Shown piece after piece: positions 3,570-29,607 of a stretch of DNA of 64,000 nt (its first letter is position 1; every line of letters starts with the position of its first letter). The position numbers and the translations under genes were made by a program. Source of the stretch: a virus (lineage: Duplodnaviria; Caudoviricetes); IMG/VR virus record IMGVR_UViG_3300032269_000703, positions 29,036 to 93,035 of that record; one strand, written 5' to 3'. The notes beneath the pieces are model-generated. The model was not told the origin of the DNA. It ran no database searches and was given only the letters and a program-made list of their open reading frames with translations.

Positions 3570-3912
3570 TCCAGAAGAATTTGATTTTAGTCATATTAAT
3601 GAGACTAACGCTCCTAGAACAATGGGAGAGCTACACGAATTAACTGAAGGTAGACCTCTTAGTAGAGCACAATGGAATAACATTATGGAGTTAGGTCTTA
3701 AACGCACCGCTAATGAAGAAGCAAATCCACCTAAGCCTGTTCCTGAAGGAATGGCTAATCCTAATCTAGGTGATCTAGAGTCTGAAGTTGGTGCTCAAAA
3801 AGTTGGCTGCAATAACTGTGGCGAACTAATGTCTCGTGATCAGCATAAAGAAGAAGGCGGATTATGCTTTGATTGCTGGAAAACTCAACAGGAAGAGGAT
3901 AGACATGAGTAA
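3562..3912 (+). CDS. Hypothetical protein with C-terminal Zn finger
   Basis: CNNC...CFDC; ATG 3562 overlaps previous gene end. Confidence 0.65.
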   Translation: MTNPEEFDFSHINETNAPRTMGELHELTEGRPLSRAQWNNIMELGLKRTANEEANPPKPVPEGMANPNLGDLESEVGAQKVGCNNCGELMSRDQHKEEGGLCFDCWKTQQEEDRHE

Positions 3913-4210
3913 ATCACCTGCATGGCAAAGAGCAGAAGGAAAGAACCCTAAAGGCGGTCTTAATGCCAAGGGTAGAGCTTCTGCTAAAAAAGAGGGGCAT
4001 AACCTCAAAGCACCTGTAAAAAAGGGCGACAATCCTCGTAGAGCCTCTTTCTTGGCTAGAATGGCTGGCAACCCAGGTCCAGAGCGTAAACCCAATGGTG
4101 AGCCTACTAGACTGCTTTTAAGCCTAGAAGCATGGGGTGCCTCATCTAAAGCTGACGCTAGACAAAAAGCTGCTGCTATTCGTAAGCGTAATGAAGGAAA
4201 GAAGAAGTAA
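3905..4210 (+). CDS. Small basic phage protein (AWQRxEGKNPKGGLNAKGRAS family)
   Basis: GAGG SD before ATG 3905; motif recalled from aquatic phages; Lys/Arg-rich. Confidence 0.8.
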   Translation: MSKSPAWQRAEGKNPKGGLNAKGRASAKKEGHNLKAPVKKGDNPRRASFLARMAGNPGPERKPNGEPTRLLLSLEAWGASSKADARQKAAAIRKRNEGKKK

Positions 4211-4371: not shown

Positions 4372-4727
4372 TGGATGAACAAAATCTAAACGATCAGCAG
4401 TTTGGTCCTTGGAAAATGACTCCTACCATGAAGGCTGTTCATGAGTATATGAAAACTAGACATGTTGGTGTAGAAAACAGAGGCGGTATGTGGGACATTG
4501 CAGCAGCTACTGTTACAAACCATAAAAAACAGTATTTAACTAATGCTAAACATGAAGCCCACTTTGAGGCATTAAATCGTCTAATTGATAATGGAATTGT
4601 AAAAAAGAACTCTGGAGACTACCATAATGGAGATGATATCGATACTGCGTGGATTCCTGTAGAAGGTGAAAAAACTGTAAAAGAACTGTACATGGAAGAA
4701 CTTGAACATAAATTTGGCAGTCAGTAA
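4371..4727 (+). CDS. Hypothetical protein, possibly winged-helix
   Basis: WDIAAA...EALNRLIDNGIVKK pattern; N-terminal NLNDQQF motif. Confidence 0.6.
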   Translation: MDEQNLNDQQFGPWKMTPTMKAVHEYMKTRHVGVENRGGMWDIAAATVTNHKKQYLTNAKHEAHFEALNRLIDNGIVKKNSGDYHNGDDIDTAWIPVEGEKTVKELYMEELEHKFGSQ

Positions 4728-5137
4728 TGGGTAGAAATACTGCAGCATTTCAAGGTGGTCAAGGACTATCTATTGTTCATGATAAAGGACAAAAAGTATC
4801 TTTACACAAAGTTGGAGAAGGTGAGGTATCTAGTATAGATTACCATTTACCAGAACCAAATAGGGTATACATTTCTATGATGAATACTCCATGGGAGTAT
4901 GAAGGTAATGGGTATTCTTCTTACCTAGTAAACCATCTGTATAACTATTACCCAAACCACACAATAGATTTTGGCGATATTGTCCACCCAGCGGCAGAAC
5001 ACATTATGGAAAAGATGATGTCACAACATGGCAGAACAGTATACAGCACTTCGTCTAAAGACTGGACTTGCAAAGAGTGCGGAGAAGAAAATTTTTCTAG
5101 AGATATGTTACGTGAGCATGAAGAAGAGAATCACTAA
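4727..5137 (+). CDS. GNAT-like acetyltransferase with C-terminal C2H2 Zn finger
   Basis: ISMMNTPWEYEGNGYSSYLV (motif A variant); CKEC-x12-HEEENH. Confidence 0.65.
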   Translation: MGRNTAAFQGGQGLSIVHDKGQKVSLHKVGEGEVSSIDYHLPEPNRVYISMMNTPWEYEGNGYSSYLVNHLYNYYPNHTIDFGDIVHPAAEHIMEKMMSQHGRTVYSTSSKDWTCKECGEENFSRDMLREHEEENH

Positions 5138-5496
5138 TGGGTAGAAATAATGCAGACTTCCATGGTTACACTCTAGAGTTTGAGCACGCTGATACTTCTC
5201 CTGTAGAAGACTGTGATCACCACAGAGTAGATGCTTTTGATAAAGATGATGAGCATGTAGGCAGTTTAATATGGTTCACGCATGACGCGGGCGCGCGTAC
5301 CCCAGGCGCAATAGACGTAGATGTAGACCCTGAACACCAGCGTAAAGGTATAGCTACTGCTATGTACAAGTTTGCTTTACAAAAAGCTGCTGAACATAAC
5401 ATTATTAAGCCAGATCTACTTAGGTCTTCGTATGGACCTGAAGGGTATAGATGGGCTAGATCTTTAGGATTACCTAAGAAGTTTGGTGAAAGATAG
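5137..5496 (+). CDS. GNAT acetyltransferase
   Basis: VDVDPEHQRKGIATAMY (Q/RxxGxA acetyl-CoA motif). Confidence 0.8.
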   Translation: MGRNNADFHGYTLEFEHADTSPVEDCDHHRVDAFDKDDEHVGSLIWFTHDAGARTPGAIDVDVDPEHQRKGIATAMYKFALQKAAEHNIIKPDLLRSSYGPEGYRWARSLGLPKKFGER

Positions 5497-5505
5497 CATA
5501 ATCTG

Positions 5506-5514
5506 TGCTATAAT
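5506..5514 (+). promoter_or_regulatory. Extended -10 promoter (TGcTATAAT) for hsp20
   Basis: Exact TGnTATAAT in intergenic gap about 7 nt before a 5' hairpin. Confidence 0.65.
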
Positions 5515-5521
5515 CTATGTA

Positions 5522-5610
5522 GGCACGCCAATTGGGTGCCATAAACAATAGTCTGCCTTATGGGGACTTTGCCGTATGGCAGACGCTTATCTACGTCTAA
5601 GGAGTAGAAA
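5522..5610 (+). promoter_or_regulatory. Structured 5' leader of hsp20 (possible RNA thermometer or switch)
   Basis: GGCAC/GTGCC hairpin; GTCTGCC/GGCAGAC long hairpin; alternative AGACG/CGTCT versus TCTAC/GTAGA stems around the AAGGAG SD. Confidence 0.55.
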
Positions 5611-6132
5611 ATGCACATTAACGTACCAGATCCATGGGATAAACACAAAAACCCATATATTAACCCACATGATCCGTGGGATAAGAAAAAAGAGTGGGAA
5701 AAACCTGCTCCACCAAAGATTATTACAATTAATGATCTATTTCCTCGTTTAGACCGCCTTTCTATTGGTTGGTCTCCACTTCTTGATCAACTCAAGGAGA
5801 TTACTAACAACAAGCCAAGTTACCCTCCATATGACATTGTTCAGATGGATGAAGAGACAAACCTACTCAACGTAGCTGTTGCTGGGTTTACTAAGAAGGA
5901 AGTTACTGTTACTGTAAAAGATTCAGCAATTACCATCGAAGGTAAGCAGAAAGAAAAGCAACGTGGCGAAGTTGTTTACCAGGGCATTGCTACACGGGAC
6001 TTTAAGTTGTCGCTAGCAATTGCTGAATACTGGGAAGTTACTAATGCTCTAATGGAAAACGGTATGTTGACTATTCAATTCAACAAGATCCTTCCTGAAG
6101 AGCTGAAGCCAAAGGTAATTGACATTAACTAG
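5611..6132 (+). CDS. Small heat-shock protein Hsp20/IbpA family
   Basis: SYPPYDIV, VAVAGF, YQGIATRDF, A.MENGMLTI motifs; AAGGAG SD. Confidence 0.93.
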   Translation: MHINVPDPWDKHKNPYINPHDPWDKKKEWEKPAPPKIITINDLFPRLDRLSIGWSPLLDQLKEITNNKPSYPPYDIVQMDEETNLLNVAVAGFTKKEVTVTVKDSAITIEGKQKEKQRGEVVYQGIATRDFKLSLAIAEYWEVTNALMENGMLTIQFNKILPEELKPKVIDIN

Positions 6133-6147
6133 TTTTTAATGTAGACT
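6119..6147 (+). promoter_or_regulatory. Sigma70/SigA-type promoter for the ncRNA cassette
   Basis: TTGACA (6119-6124) - 17 nt - TAGACT (6142-6147); predicted start about 6154. Confidence 0.75.
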
Positions 6148-6154
6148 AGGTATA

Positions 6155-6184
6155 CCACCTGAGCACGTGGACGTAAAACTGCTC
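6155..6184 (+). ncRNA. H-type pseudoknot at 5' end of ncRNA cassette
   Basis: S1 CCAC 6155-58/GTGG 6167-70; S2 GAGCA 6161-65/TGCTC 6180-84; A-rich loop ACGTAAAAC. Confidence 0.6.
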
Positions 6185-6187
6185 TTA

Positions 6188-6267
6188 GGGCTAGAAATGG
6201 TGTCGATTGCAGAACAAAGCCGCATGTCGGAGTCTGTAAGACCGCAGTTCAATTCTGCGCTGGTCCA
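6188..6267 (+). ncRNA. ssrA: Minimal tmRNA: tRNA-like domain only, no mRNA-like domain
   Basis: Acceptor GGGCTAG/CTGGTCC with G3:U pair and discriminator A; stemless D-loop ending GTCGA; P2 TTGCAGA/TCTGTAA; GAC linker; T-arm CGCAG-TTCAATT-CTGCG; CCA not encoded. Confidence 0.8.
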
Positions 6268-6272
6268 CGCTT

Positions 6273-6324
6273 GTAGACAAAGGAGCGTTTTAGCGGTCTA
6301 CCCGTCCTAGGCAACGGAATCTCC
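6273..6324 (+). ncRNA. Nested pseudoknot-like RNA between the two tRNA-like elements
   Basis: GTAGAC/GTCTAC, GGAG/CTCC, CGT/GCG, CCGT/ACGG pairings. Confidence 0.4.
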
Positions 6325-6326
6325 AA

Positions 6327-6397
6327 GGACTGGCGTAGCCATGGGCTACGAGTCGATTCGGTAGGTAGTAGTCGGTAGTGCAAATCTACACAGTCCA
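6327..6397 (+). ncRNA. Non-canonical tRNA-like cloverleaf
   Basis: Acceptor GGACTG/CAGTCC+A; CGTAGCC/GGCTACG stem; CGATT/AGTCG stem with 11-nt loop; T-arm GTAG-TGCAAAT-CTAC. Confidence 0.55.
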
Positions 6398-6413
6398 CGC
6401 ATGGAAGGAAAAT

Positions 6414-6587
6414 ATGCCAACGTATCAATACACGTGTAAAGAGTGTGACTCTACAATTAGTCACCTCATACCTATTAATGAACCATTAATAACTCCTAAA
6501 TGCCTGTCCTGTCAACAGGAAATGGAAAGGATATTTGCCGTTCCTAGTATTACATTTCGTGGTGGTGGTTGGGGCAGTAGCCGTTGA
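6414..6587 (+). CDS. FmdB-family zinc-ribbon protein
   Basis: MPTYQYTCKEC...CLSC..MERIF..P.ITFRGGGW; GGAAGG SD. Confidence 0.88.
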   Translation: MPTYQYTCKECDSTISHLIPINEPLITPKCLSCQQEMERIFAVPSITFRGGGWGSSR

Positions 6588-7027
6588 AGACATGCACTTT
6601 ATGCGGTATTGAGAAATCTTACGATCAATACACTAAAAAAAGCCGTAATAGGGATGGGTACATGGCTATGTGCCGTGAATGCTCTCTACCTAGGCGTCGT
6701 AAACAATATGAAGAAAATCCGGACTATCAAAGGAACGCAGTGAAGGTTCGTAAAGAAAATAATCGTGATCGCATAACACAGTACAAGATAGATAACCCTT
6801 GTGCTGATTGTGGTAAATTTTATCCTTCTTATGTGATGGATCTAGATCACGTACGTGGAGATAAGTTTAAAGGAGTATCTCAGCTAGTTTCACATAGCTG
6901 GGACGTAATAGAAACAGAAATTGCTAAGTGTGACTTAGTATGCGCTAATTGCCATCGTGAACGTACTTTTAAACGTTTAGGCACAACACAACTCGACTAC
7001 TACCATGAGGACTACCAACTTGATTAA
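6584..7027 (+). CDS. HNH endonuclease
   Basis: N-terminal CTLC/CREC; PCADCG..MDLDH..KCDLVCANCHRERT. Confidence 0.85.
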   Translation: MKTCTLCGIEKSYDQYTKKSRNRDGYMAMCRECSLPRRRKQYEENPDYQRNAVKVRKENNRDRITQYKIDNPCADCGKFYPSYVMDLDHVRGDKFKGVSQLVSHSWDVIETEIAKCDLVCANCHRERTFKRLGTTQLDYYHEDYQLD

Positions 7028-7541
7028 GAACCCTATTGAAGTAACCCTAACTGAAGAAGAAGTAGCTGAAGGACTAGACTTTGTCCGTAAAGTACGTGAG
7101 AACAAAGAAAAGCATGGCGTACGTGACATGATGTTTGATCTTAAAAACACTTCTGAAGGAATCAACATTATTGGTCATTTAGGAGAAGTAGCTGCTTCTA
7201 ACTACCTTGGATTAAAAGTAAACCGTGATATTTACGTACATGGCGATGGTGGGCTAGATTTAGAGCTAGATGGCACCACAATCCAGGTAAAAACAAGTAA
7301 ACTACCTAAGATGATATTTAACCATCATCTAGGGTTTTCTACTGATATCGCAGTACTAGCCCAGTATATTGGTGAAGATAACCGTCATGCTGAAAAAGAT
7401 CCTAGGTTCCTTATTTGGGGTTGGATCAATAAAGAGCAGTTTATGGAAAAGTACTACCCTTATGATTTTGGCTACGGAACACGTCTTGTAGTTGAGTCTA
7501 TTCAATTAAACCCTATGGATAAGTTGGTCAAAGTAAAATGA
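7005..7541 (+). CDS. PD-(D/E)XK-like nuclease fold protein
   Basis: GHLGEVAA...GDGGLDL...IQVKT. Confidence 0.6.
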   Translation: MRTTNLIKNPIEVTLTEEEVAEGLDFVRKVRENKEKHGVRDMMFDLKNTSEGINIIGHLGEVAASNYLGLKVNRDIYVHGDGGLDLELDGTTIQVKTSKLPKMIFNHHLGFSTDIAVLAQYIGEDNRHAEKDPRFLIWGWINKEQFMEKYYPYDFGYGTRLVVESIQLNPMDKLVKVK

Positions 7542-7672
7542 TGTTTTTATGGTTAATACTGTCTGGAATAGGCATTACAAGTATTATTATTATAGGTTTG
7601 TTCTCTTTAATTATTTTTATTGAGGCACTTGCAAACCATTCTGATTTAGATTCGGATTTTTGGAAAGAGTAG
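7538..7672 (+). CDS. Single-pass membrane peptide (44 aa)
   Basis: MMFLWLILSGIGITSIIIIGLFSLIIFIEALANHSDLDSDFWKE; ATGA overlap. Confidence 0.6.
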   Translation: MMFLWLILSGIGITSIIIIGLFSLIIFIEALANHSDLDSDFWKE

Positions 7673-7674
7673 CT

Positions 7675-7860
7675 ATGGGTTACATTAATGAGCTTCGTAC
7701 TGGACTTGCTGGCGGTCGTGGCAATCTAAGCCTAAAAATCTCTACTCGCTATGATGGTCTTGGCATTAACGCGCAAAAGTTTGGCGGAAAGCAGTTTACT
7801 GTAGGTGAAACAAACTACGCTAGCAGTAACAAAGGAATTGCTAAACCAGGCAGCTTTTAA
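7675..7860 (+). CDS. Hypothetical Gly-rich peptide
   Basis: ATG 7675 just after previous stop; coupled to next. Confidence 0.6.
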   Translation: MGYINELRTGLAGGRGNLSLKISTRYDGLGINAQKFGGKQFTVGETNYASSNKGIAKPGSF

Positions 7861-7994
7861 TGCTTAGCACACAGTTTTCTAGAGCTACCGGCATGTATGG
7901 CGGTCCTAGAGGTACTTACGGTACTTATCTTGTAGGTCAAAATGTAGATCTAGCAAGTTTTAAAACCGATAGAGAAAGACAGTCAGGCGAATGA
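7860..7994 (+). CDS. Hypothetical 44-aa peptide starting MLSTQF
   Basis: Not in ORF track; TAATG and ATGA coupling. Confidence 0.6.
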   Translation: MLSTQFSRATGMYGGPRGTYGTYLVGQNVDLASFKTDRERQSGE

Positions 7995-8074
7995 TCCCAG
8001 AAGAAGAAGAATTTGATTTTGACTTTGTTATTTTTGATGAAGACGAAGAGGATGAGGATGAGGATGAACAATGA
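7991..8074 (+). CDS. 27-aa hyper-acidic peptide
   Basis: MIPEEEEFDFDFVIFDEDEEDEDEDEQ; ATGA overlaps at both ends. Confidence 0.55.
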   Translation: MIPEEEEFDFDFVIFDEDEEDEDEDEQ

Positions 8075-27819: not shown

Positions 27820-29607
27820 ATGACTAAAAAAATATTAACTGACCTAGATGCTACTGGTCGTACAATAACTGCTGGTATTTTTTCTGGAGTTGCTAATAAT
27901 GACACAATAAATACTATTACCGGTGCAACATCAACAGCATCATTTTGGTCAGATGTTACTACTGGAACAATCGGCGTTGGAACAGGCGTAACTACTGGAA
28001 CAATTAGCATTGGAACTGGGCTTACAACTGGAAGAGTAGACATTGCAGTAGGTTCTGGTTCTACGCCAACTAGCACTGTAAATATTAATACTGGTAAATC
28101 TGGTAGTCAAAATGTAATTACAAATATTGGCAGTGGTACTTTGGGTGGGACAATAAATCTTTATACAGGTGCTTCTGGAGTTATTTTAAATGGAACCGCC
28201 TTAATTAAAACCCCAACTGCTATTACTTCTGGTTCCTCAATAGGGTTATCTATTACAACTGGTTCAGGTGCTTTAGGTGCTAACAGCGGGTCTGTAACTA
28301 TTGACGCTGGTCAGATACCAACAGGTGCTGGAACTGCTGGAACTGTTCTTATTGGGAATAACTATGCAACAAGTTTAACAATTGGTAGAAGTAATATTAC
28401 TACTACAATAAATGGAACATTGGCAACTACTAGCCCATCAATTACTACTTCTTTAACAACCCCCTCAACCTCGTTTGATTTATTAAATACTACTGCAACG
28501 ACAATAAACGCTTTTGGTGCCGCAACAACACTTACTATTGGTGCAGCAACCGCAAGTACTGTATCAATAGGTTCAGCGGCTACCTCTGTTACTTTAGGGC
28601 AAGGTTCAAGTAACTTAAATGCTAATAAATCTGTAAATATTGCTGGGTCAACAGGATCAAACGCAGTATCAACAGGAGTTACTTCAAGTCTTACTTTAAA
28701 CAATTATTATTCAATTATTGGTACTTCTACTACGTATATTGGTGGAGGGTATTCACTCACTGGAACATCAACAATTAACATTGGTACTTTTTCTGGTTCT
28801 GTTAGTGGTACAAACAATATTACTATTGGGTCTTCACCAGGAACTACTACAATAAATGGAACTCTTGTAGCGTCTGCTCCTGCTGGTTCTCTCACAGGTA
28901 CGTCTTTACCCGCTGCAATTACGTCTGCTTCTGGGTTAGCAACCGTTGGAACTATTACTTCGGGTACTTGGAATGGTACTGCTATTACCTCTCAATATGG
29001 AGGTACTGGTCAATCTGGCTCAAGCCCATTTACGCAGTATGGTGTTACTTACGCTTCTACTGCAACCGCTTTAGCACAAACTGCTGCTGGTACTGCTGGT
29101 CAAGTATTAACTTCTAACGCTACTTCTGCACCTACTTGGTCAGACAAAGGGTATACCCTAATTTCAGCTGTTGCATTTTCTGGTTCTGCACCATCTTTTA
29201 CATCGATACCGCAAACATATAAAAAACTTGTAGTACAAATTAAATTTGATTCAATAGGTACTTTTTCTGCAAGTTGTTATCTTACTGTAAATAATAATGC
29301 AGTTATTTATGCCACACTTTATTCAGTAGGTTCAACAACAGCAACTACCTCTGCCACTGGTACCGATACAGTTATTAGGTTAACTGCTCAATCTGTAACA
29401 CCAATTGCAGGTGATTTAATGACAGTTGAAATACCAAATTATACAGGGTCAAGACCAACTATATGGATATCTGGTGGATATAGTGCTTCTTCACAAACAA
29501 GATGGGGTGTTGCTTCTACCGCAGCAGCAATTACTCAAGTTAGTTTTGGAGCATCTGCTTCTTGGGGTACTGGTGCTGGAACTGCTTATTTATACGGGGT
29601 GAACTAA
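27820..29607 (+). CDS. Fibre/receptor-binding protein
   Basis: Thr/Gly beta repeats, GTITSGTWNG, GQVLTSN; C-terminal FTSIPQTYK..LYG domain. Confidence 0.75.
   Translation: MTKKILTDLDATGRTITAGIFSGVANNDTINTITGATSTASFWSDVTTGTIGVGTGVTTGTISIGTGLTTGRVDIAVGSGSTPTSTVNINTGKSGSQNVITNIGSGTLGGTINLYTGASGVILNGTALIKTPTAITSGSSIGLSITTGSGALGANSGSVTIDAGQIPTGAGTAGTVLIGNNYATSLTIGRSNITTTINGTLATTSPSITTSLTTPSTSFDLLNTTATTINAFGAATTLTIGAATASTVSIGSAATSVTLGQGSSNLNANKSVNIAGSTGSNAVSTGVTSSLTLNNYYSIIGTSTTYIGGGYSLTGTSTINIGTFSGSVSGTNNITIGSSPGTTTINGTLVASAPAGSLTGTSLPAAITSASGLATVGTITSGTWNGTAITSQYGGTGQSGSSPFTQYGVTYASTATALAQTAAGTAGQVLTSNATSAPTWSDKGYTLISAVAFSGSAPSFTSIPQTYKKLVVQIKFDSIGTFSASCYLTVNNNAVIYATLYSVGSTTATTSATGTDTVIRLTAQSVTPIAGDLMTVEIPNYTGSRPTIWISGGYSASSQTRWGVASTAAAITQVSFGASASWGTGAGTAYLYGVN

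Follow-up and report, generated by a model that had tools for sequence, protein, structure and literature searches.

A transfer-messenger RNA (tmRNA) consisting of the tRNA-like domain (TLD) only has been reported from mycobacteriophage DS6A (PMC4131195; PMC11915505), and a literature search for other names or reports of such phage RNAs yielded DS6A alone as a published isolate. In E. coli, a DS6A-like molecule is stated to be a strong inhibitor of tmRNA whether or not it can be charged, perhaps because it titrates SmpB (PMC4131195, citing Mao et al. 2009). A 2025 database paper repeats the statement on inhibition and adds plastid forms of about 65 bp that lack a coding part (PMC11915505). Here, an RNA of this kind is described from a 64,000-nt stretch of phage DNA (hereafter the window), which covers bases 29036–93035 of a virus record that is 93,035 bp long and has direct terminal repeats (IMGVR_UViG_3300032269_000703). 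Downstream of an hsp20 gene, the window contains a cassette of non-coding RNAs whose central element is very probably a TLD-only tmRNA, hereafter the mini-tmRNA, and which continues with two further conserved RNAs, a pseudoknot and a cloverleaf.

The mini-tmRNA has an acceptor of 7 bp, formed by positions 6188–6194 with 6260–6266 of the window, with G1-C72, a G3·U70 wobble and A6267 as the discriminator. Its D-loop is 12 nt long, has no stem and carries GG and UCGA, and helix 2a comprises 7 bp, with an internal loop and a 3-bp hairpin as its cap. The 3′ half consists of a GAC linker and a 5-bp T arm with a standard T-loop, and CCA is not encoded. Only 18 nt (6215–6232) lie between the strands of helix 2. 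No mRNA-like domain (resume codon, tag frame, stop) is present in the element, in which ARAGORN finds no tmRNA at relaxed settings, and no pseudoknots PK1–PK4 are found, the 3-bp hairpin capping helix 2 instead.

Relatives of this element are numerous. Exact-pattern scans recovered 29 viral and 106 metagenome stretches, and a slightly degenerate pattern recovered more than 118 viral contigs; filtering on acceptor pairing resulted in 123 copies with 82 unique sequences of 77–81 nt. The family as a whole comprises at least 83 distinct 77–81-nt sequences from lake, human-gut and other samples, carried by well over a hundred phage contigs. In an alignment of 38 sequences, 97.2% of the cells pair and 16 of 21 pairs have changed on both sides, while artificially slid partners pair at 32–49%. 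When 83 sequences were aligned to a covariance model of the family (R1), 97.6% of the cells pair and 19 of 22 pairs show double changes, against slid partners at 32–50% and none of 500 shuffles matching. Both helix 2a and the T arm covary in this larger set. The G3·U70 wobble is retained in 80 of the 83 sequences and is never replaced by G-C, while the adjoining pairs change freely, and the 82 unique copies tallied all have A73. The main identity element by which alanyl-tRNA synthetase recognizes tRNA-Ala, minihelices and tmRNA is G3·U70. Its retention across the family argues that alanine charging matters, being the signature expected of an RNA selected for charging with this amino acid. The cap loop is 4–5 nt in most members and variable in sequence, and CCA is encoded in 20 of the 82 unique members, the window copy not being one of them. 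A gut-phage subgroup (L028, L036, L051 and some 20 similar contigs from the human gut) has CCA encoded in the mini-tmRNA itself, which is flanked on one side by a terminator-like hairpin and on the other by the ribosome-binding site belonging to a conserved gene with a product that begins MDEFHLDMGVRF.

The family shares with five bacterial and ten phage tmRNAs a GGG start, the stemless D-loop with GG and UCGA, the GAC linker before the T stem, the replacement of the anticodon arm by a helix, and the same 3′ end. In the subgroup with a canonical D-loop, 16 of the 17 loci tested pass the Rfam tmRNA model RF00023 at 56–79.5 bits (threshold 47). The matches of these relatives are about 80 nt long and run over model positions 1–374, and the alignment shown for one of them (L215) lacks the middle of about 300 positions. 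Rfam clan competition prefers tmRNA over tRNA for these relatives. The subgroup of the window carries two changes in the D-loop, where the window copy departs from the usual tmRNA motif at two positions, and an A for G before the linker; this altered D-loop and linker explain why the window copy falls below the Rfam threshold. Both subgroups are scored by R1 at 56–102 bits, and in DS6A (JN698994) the same model matches positions 28478–28557 with 60.7 bits (E 9e-16, model positions 1–79). The 15–23 bits that R1 gives to real tmRNA 3′ ends were dropped as evidence, since ordinary tRNAs score alike. Rfam makes no tRNA call for the window element, its tRNA/tmRNA clan keeping the best overlapping match only. 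The family covariation, the relatives that pass Rfam and the DS6A match together uphold what a first-pass annotation of the window, made from the sequence alone, had proposed for this element, namely a tmRNA tRNA-like domain. In the GenBank record of DS6A, the matching stretch (L286), located between gp33 and gp34, is unannotated; DS6A also encodes an RtcB-like RNA ligase (gp76).

The cassette and its borders are as follows.

5611–6132, + strand: hsp20 gene (Pfam HSP20, E 5e-15), the final codons of which hold the −35 box of the next feature.
6119–6147, + strand: candidate sigma-70-type promoter by consensus match, with −35 TTGACA at 6119–6124, a 17-nt spacer and −10 TAGACT at 6142–6147.
6154–6187, + strand: 5′ leader, which forms a weak hairpin at −8.1 kcal/mol (z −1.07).
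6188–6267, + strand: TLD-only tmRNA, very probably, with no coding part; 80 nt, 93.1 bits with R1 and the sole R1 match in the window.
6268–6326, + strand: pseudoknotted spacer RNA with a 6-bp stem, a loop strand pairing downstream and a 4-bp hairpin in between.
6327–6397, + strand: cloverleaf, tRNA-shaped RNA; 71 nt, 94.8 bits with a second covariance model (R2), cloverleaf by RNAalifold.
6403–6587, + strand: ribosome-binding site (6403–6409) and FmdB-type Zn-ribbon gene (ATG at 6414; Pfam Zn_ribbon_8, E 7e-10).

The cassette is real and unannotated, and consists of a promoter, a weak leader hairpin and then three structured RNAs. The first-pass annotation had claimed a dedicated operon of four RNA modules in the order pseudoknot, TLD, pseudoknot and tRNA-like RNA, which standard annotation would miss entirely. 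That standard annotation misses it is correct: ARAGORN at default settings calls no canonical tRNA and no tmRNA, either in the window or across the full 93-kb genome, at relaxed settings it returns noise only (186 "genes" with huge introns), and Rfam at gathering thresholds reports nothing over the window. The last three modules are retained, while the pseudoknot assigned to the leader is not. Relatives carry at the leader position an unrelated, strong, simple hairpin (z −4 to −6 in several of them), and the leader pseudoknot was rejected on this lack of conservation; the segment is read as a 5′ leader that would be taken off by RNase P. The description as dedicated is not supported either, in that positions 5000–8000 contain no predicted terminator-like site and the ribosome-binding site and the Zn-ribbon gene begin 6–17 nt past the cloverleaf, so that this gene probably shares a transcript with the RNAs. 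Folding of the 256-nt region is no better than that of shuffled sequence (z = −0.09); whole-region folding is therefore uninformative, and the case for the RNAs must be comparative rather than thermodynamic.

The predicted promoter was found as described, with a consensus score of 10/12, and would place the transcript start near 6154. The match by itself is weak evidence, because six promoter-like sites were seen in the 3 kb scanned versus 6.8 expected. At the relatives' loci, non-coding DNA again holds the −10 box, at the same place and at a constant distance. The −35 box sits within codons for the conserved C-terminus of Hsp20, and its conservation is no independent evidence since the coding function may explain it. 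The borders between the RNAs and the RNase P sites proposed at 6188 and 6327 agree with the 5′ ends derived here. The 3′ sequence that the two tRNA-like RNAs were said to share was also recovered, as the octamer GTCCACGC at 6263–6270 and 6393–6400, of which the 64 kb hold three copies versus 0.46 expected. CGC, not CCA, stands directly after both RNAs.

The pseudoknot between the two tRNA-like RNAs, already recognized in the first-pass annotation, is represented by 12 unique variants, which have the discriminator of a tmRNA or mini-tmRNA immediately on their 5′ side and the cloverleaf or a tRNA-Trp immediately on their 3′ side. Its outer 6-bp stem shows a U-A to C-G change in two lineages. A four-base loop strand pairs with a strand downstream of the inserted 4-bp hairpin, and this pairing occurs in the states GGAG/CUCC, AGAG/CUCU, GGAAG/CUUCC and GAGAG/CUCUC together with a G·U intermediate, one of the states having arisen through a compensating insertion on both sides. 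On this comparative sequence evidence, the element is a conserved pseudoknot. A second type of spacer, about 65 nt long with two hairpins and unrelated in sequence to the pseudoknot, occurs in L033, L206, L268, L273 and L285, where it directly follows the discriminator of the TLD, tmRNA or cloverleaf and replaces the pseudoknot before the cloverleaf or tRNA-Trp.

For the cloverleaf, a scan for its T-like arm returned 21 viral stretches, all but one of which (about 20 contigs) carry the full element. The RNAalifold consensus of 15 sequences comprises a 6-bp acceptor-like stem followed by A, a 6-bp arm, a 4–5-bp arm and a T-like arm of 4 bp with a 7-nt loop, and four of its pairs show double changes, which bears out the tRNA-like shape assigned to it earlier; sequence diversity in this set is limited, as the search pattern fixed the 3′ third. 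The loop at the position of the anticodon arm is variable (5–13 nt). Neither the cloverleaf nor the mini-tmRNA has an anticodon loop, so neither can decode. Position 3:70 of the cloverleaf is A-U in 14 of the 15 sequences, which means that it is no alanine acceptor. It matches no Rfam family even at E values up to 10 and receives no ARAGORN call. R2 matches the cloverleaf in 3 of the 83 distinct TLD loci searched; the element is thus lineage-specific, and a role as a general partner of the TLD was rejected on this count. The pseudoknot and the cloverleaf are new conserved RNAs without a family assignment, and are taken to be either co-processed accessory RNAs or a structured processing spacer and a second tRNA mimic.

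Loci of relatives, found through the Hsp20 protein, show the cassette in different states. L003 has the leader, mini-tmRNA, pseudoknot and cloverleaf as in the window, with a strong-hairpin leader and a different following gene. In L001 and L002, the mini-tmRNA and pseudoknot are followed by a genuine tRNA-Trp in place of the cloverleaf, and in L004 the leader and mini-tmRNA lead directly to the Zn-ribbon gene. In more remote relatives, hsp20 is followed by tRNAs or plain terminators, and the gut-phage copies consist of the TLD alone. In larger related phages (113–137 kb records), a full-length tmRNA is found just upstream of the pseudoknot; 13 of these were called by ARAGORN, with tags ending ALAA, and seven were scored by Rfam at 109–155 bits. 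The full tmRNAs that precede the pseudoknot and cloverleaf carry internal pseudoknots of their own. Since the pseudoknot and cloverleaf of the larger relatives follow a full-length tmRNA, the mini-tmRNA of the window sits in the slot of a full tmRNA. From its sequence, it did not arise by recent deletion from the full tmRNA genes of those relatives.

Full tmRNAs of large freshwater phages were located at L267:4925-5225, L269:1986-2282, L273:4844-5191, L276:4187-4526, L277:8184-8527 and L279:718-1063. Their tags include AERTSAFALAA, ANTSAYALAA and AESRSAFALAA, and CCA is encoded in none of them. Most of the large-phage tmRNAs directly precede the pseudoknot and cloverleaf, with another spacer in between in L268, L284 and L285. 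In the two of these large-phage records that were checked, no SmpB gene was found. At L279:1645-1822, a manA RNA motif (RF01745, 59.1 bits) lies in the same region as the tmRNA, the pseudoknot, the cloverleaf and a tRNA-Gly. A further conserved, structured-looking element of about 100 nt occurs about 100 nt downstream of the TLD or cloverleaf in L030, L034, L279, L280 and L285 and is absent from the window.

Among the neighbouring genes, Pfam confirms GNAT (5137–5493), Hsp20, DUF6321 (3836–4207) and the FmdB-type Zn ribbon. The GNAT, Hsp20 and FmdB labels given before are thus sustained, while those of ART and HNH are not: the one candidate tested for ART (open reading frame 4727–5134) has a weak Zn-ribbon match only in Pfam and no ART or GNAT domain, and the open reading frame at 6584–7024 has no HNH match in Pfam. 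The earlier suggestion, drawn from these neighbours, of a translation-stress or anti-defence system is a possible reading. No integrase and no CCA-adding enzyme were found in this phage, and no SmpB gene was found in it or in five related records. Nucleotide BLAST of positions 5600–7100 against isolate phages gave no match, and the TLD alone matched tRNA T-arm fragments only. In the window (6414–6587) and in L001, L004, L033, L173, L241 and L222, the mini-tmRNA is followed within about 300 nt by a gene for an FmdB-type Zn ribbon; these loci span several distinct lineages, including some with a diverged TLD, and the arrangement is far from universal. The first open reading frames downstream of the TLD are of about 60 different kinds across the family, and a conserved protein partner at this position was rejected on that ground.

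It is proposed that the promoter overlapping the end of hsp20 would drive a transcript that opens with the non-coding RNAs and probably runs into the Zn-ribbon gene. Cleavage by host RNase P would occur 5′ of G6188 and G6327, and that by an RNase Z-type 3′ endonuclease after A6267 and A6397. As CGC rather than CCA follows both tRNA-like RNAs, the host CCA-adding enzyme is proposed to complete their 3′ ends. Such tRNA-type processing is likely. In the family, 41 of the 123 copies lie within 500 nt of a tRNA and 26 of them within 100 nt, often at 1–6 nt and nearly always on the same strand; the 26 close copies are the reason for proposing cleavage at tRNA-like ends, and this layout fits the polycistronic precursor suggested in the first-pass annotation. 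The mini-tmRNA may then be charged with alanine through G3·U70 and A73 and bind SmpB of the host, which is proposed as the partner because no phage SmpB was found. In this form, it would compete with the tmRNA of the host for the vacant A site of stalled ribosomes as well as for SmpB and EF-Tu and, having neither a resume codon nor a tag frame, would add no degradation tag. The net effect would be that host trans-translation is blocked or diverted during infection. An action on trans-translation through SmpB is rather probable, and the published inhibition of tmRNA favours a block as its outcome; whether the mini-tmRNA is a net inhibitor rather than a tag-less rescuer is nevertheless evenly balanced. 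A processed, alanine-charged mini-tmRNA that blocks or diverts host trans-translation is, taken as a whole, the favoured interpretation, with confidence slightly on the positive side.

Several observations weigh against this interpretation. The window copy fails all Rfam tmRNA models (RF00023 and the permuted forms), with 12.2 bits at best, and is missed by ARAGORN; its membership in the family therefore depends on R1 and on transitive links, and R1 gives ordinary tRNAs 13–30 bits. Alanine charging and SmpB binding would have to be read from conserved features only. Inhibition by the DS6A-like molecule, as reported, did not need chargeability (PMC4131195), and together with the strict conservation of G3·U70 this suggests a natural role beyond the titration of SmpB. 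The full, tag-encoding tmRNA that sister phages hold in the same slot fits a supply of rescue at least as well as a block. In an alternative, the alanyl-mini-tmRNA would enter the stalled ribosome with host SmpB and accept the nascent chain without adding a proteolysis tag; release of the ribosome would come from a different rescue factor or from alanine being added in repeated rounds, and phage or host proteins from broken mRNAs would be set free. Near-absolute conservation of G3·U70 and A73 implies that charging is selected, whereas SmpB titration needs none by the reported account (PMC4131195), and the full tmRNA of related phages in the same slot is in line with rescue. According to the database paper, coding-less tmRNAs persist in jakobid mitochondria together with SmpB and have been reported in some plastids, and its authors suggest that the mitochondrial form still helps with incomplete mRNAs (PMC11915505). 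The sole experiment reported on such a molecule showed inhibition of tmRNA instead. We also know of no mechanism that would free a peptidyl-TLD without a stop codon, and tag-less rescue is accordingly considered possible at a clearly lower probability than the favoured interpretation. A bolder version, in which the cassette rewrites ribosome rescue, is unlikely: the charged mini-tmRNA would add an untemplated alanine without a tag, and the pseudoknot and cloverleaf, which in this lineage always follow a phage tmRNA or mini-tmRNA, would be its functional partners and two new RNA families of trans-translation, for example by controlling 3′ maturation or by forming a second mimic directed at the ribosome or SmpB.

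It is also conceivable, at a still lower probability, that the mini-tmRNA lures, or is acted on by, other host factors able to recognize the shape of a tRNA or tmRNA (defence nucleases, tRNA-modifying toxins or sensors containing SmpB-like domains, for example), or that it donates alanine outside translation; the cloverleaf would then be a second decoy. Two different tRNA-shaped RNAs, unable to decode for lack of an anticodon loop, do adjoin putative host-modifying enzymes, of which the GNAT is confirmed by Pfam, and SmpB-like domains have been reported in defence systems (PMC11090510); however, no specific partner was identified, the family has widely differing genes downstream of the TLD, the cloverleaf accompanies so few TLD loci (3 of 83), and the tmRNA-specific features point to SmpB itself. 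The first-pass annotation had also considered a single composite RNA in which tmRNA parts are rearranged, with pseudoknots outside the TLD or a message hidden in the pseudoknot and cloverleaf. The order of pseudoknot and tRNA-like RNA does recall the parts of a tmRNA and, from the sequence, the 5′ strand of the mini-tmRNA acceptor could form 5 bp with the 3′ end of the cloverleaf. Yet the mini-tmRNA is closed upon itself by covarying stems and occurs without the other two RNAs in most relatives; these follow complete tmRNAs elsewhere, and the cloverleaf has covarying arms of its own. Occurring independently as they do among relatives, the RNAs make a composite molecule highly improbable. Inspection of the sequences led to the rejection of a hidden tag frame as well, as the frames are not conserved, one in the cloverleaf stopping after three codons in one subtype and running for 12 in the other. 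No greater probability is given to non-functional relics, that is, tRNA or tmRNA genes that have decayed or a fragment of the host ssrA from an attachment site. Phages often carry ssrA 3′ ends as phage attachment sites (attP), and neither ARAGORN nor Rfam calls a gene here; against this, both halves of the TLD are present, every stem is kept by compensatory changes across the 83 sequences, the length is fixed at 77–81 nt, and the genome has terminal repeats and no integrase. An attP remnant was rejected on the covariation and on the lack of an integrase.

The TLD-only phage tmRNA, known but barely documented from DS6A, is thereby shown to belong to a widespread RNA family, and the subgroup represented by the window escapes ARAGORN and Rfam and is consequently missed in phage annotation. 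The cassette also adds a pseudoknot and a cloverleaf as two conserved phage RNAs without family assignment. Whether phages switch off or re-route trans-translation, and why some carry a full tmRNA and others its head only, becomes a testable question.

For the pseudoknot and the cloverleaf, the species 1 and 2 RNAs of the phage T4 tRNA cluster provide a working analogy by description. These are structured non-tRNA molecules that are co-transcribed with the phage tRNAs and excised from the same precursor. The present phage differs from T4 in having no canonical tRNAs. The mini-tmRNA resembles tRNA-Ala and alanine minihelices in G3·U70 and A73 and in a 7-bp acceptor stacked on a T arm, features that make up the recognized identity set of AlaRS, but, unlike tRNA-Ala, it lacks a D stem and an anticodon arm or loop, and it receives no tRNA call from ARAGORN or Rfam. 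With the full-length tmRNA (RF00023), it shares the acceptor, the D-loop motif, helix 2a, the GAC linker, the T arm and the discriminator A, while the resume codon, the tag frame and PK1–PK4 are missing; a small hairpin stands in for about 300 nt, as shown for one relative. By description, jakobid mitochondria and Mallomonadaceae plastids likewise keep a tmRNA cut down to nearly the TLD, although these forms are organellar, the mitochondrial one co-occurring with a nucleus-encoded SmpB and the plastid ones being about 65 bp long (PMC11915505). The closest counterpart is the TLD-only tmRNA of DS6A (tmID 11587), which is likewise phage-encoded, about 80 nt long and equipped with G3·U70, A73, a stemless D-loop, a short capped helix 2 and a T arm but no tag frame, and to which R1 aligns end to end. 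The two phages are nevertheless unlike, DS6A being a GC-rich temperate actinophage with an integrase, and the window copy is set apart from that of DS6A by belonging to a diverged subgroup below the Rfam threshold and by being flanked by two further conserved RNAs.

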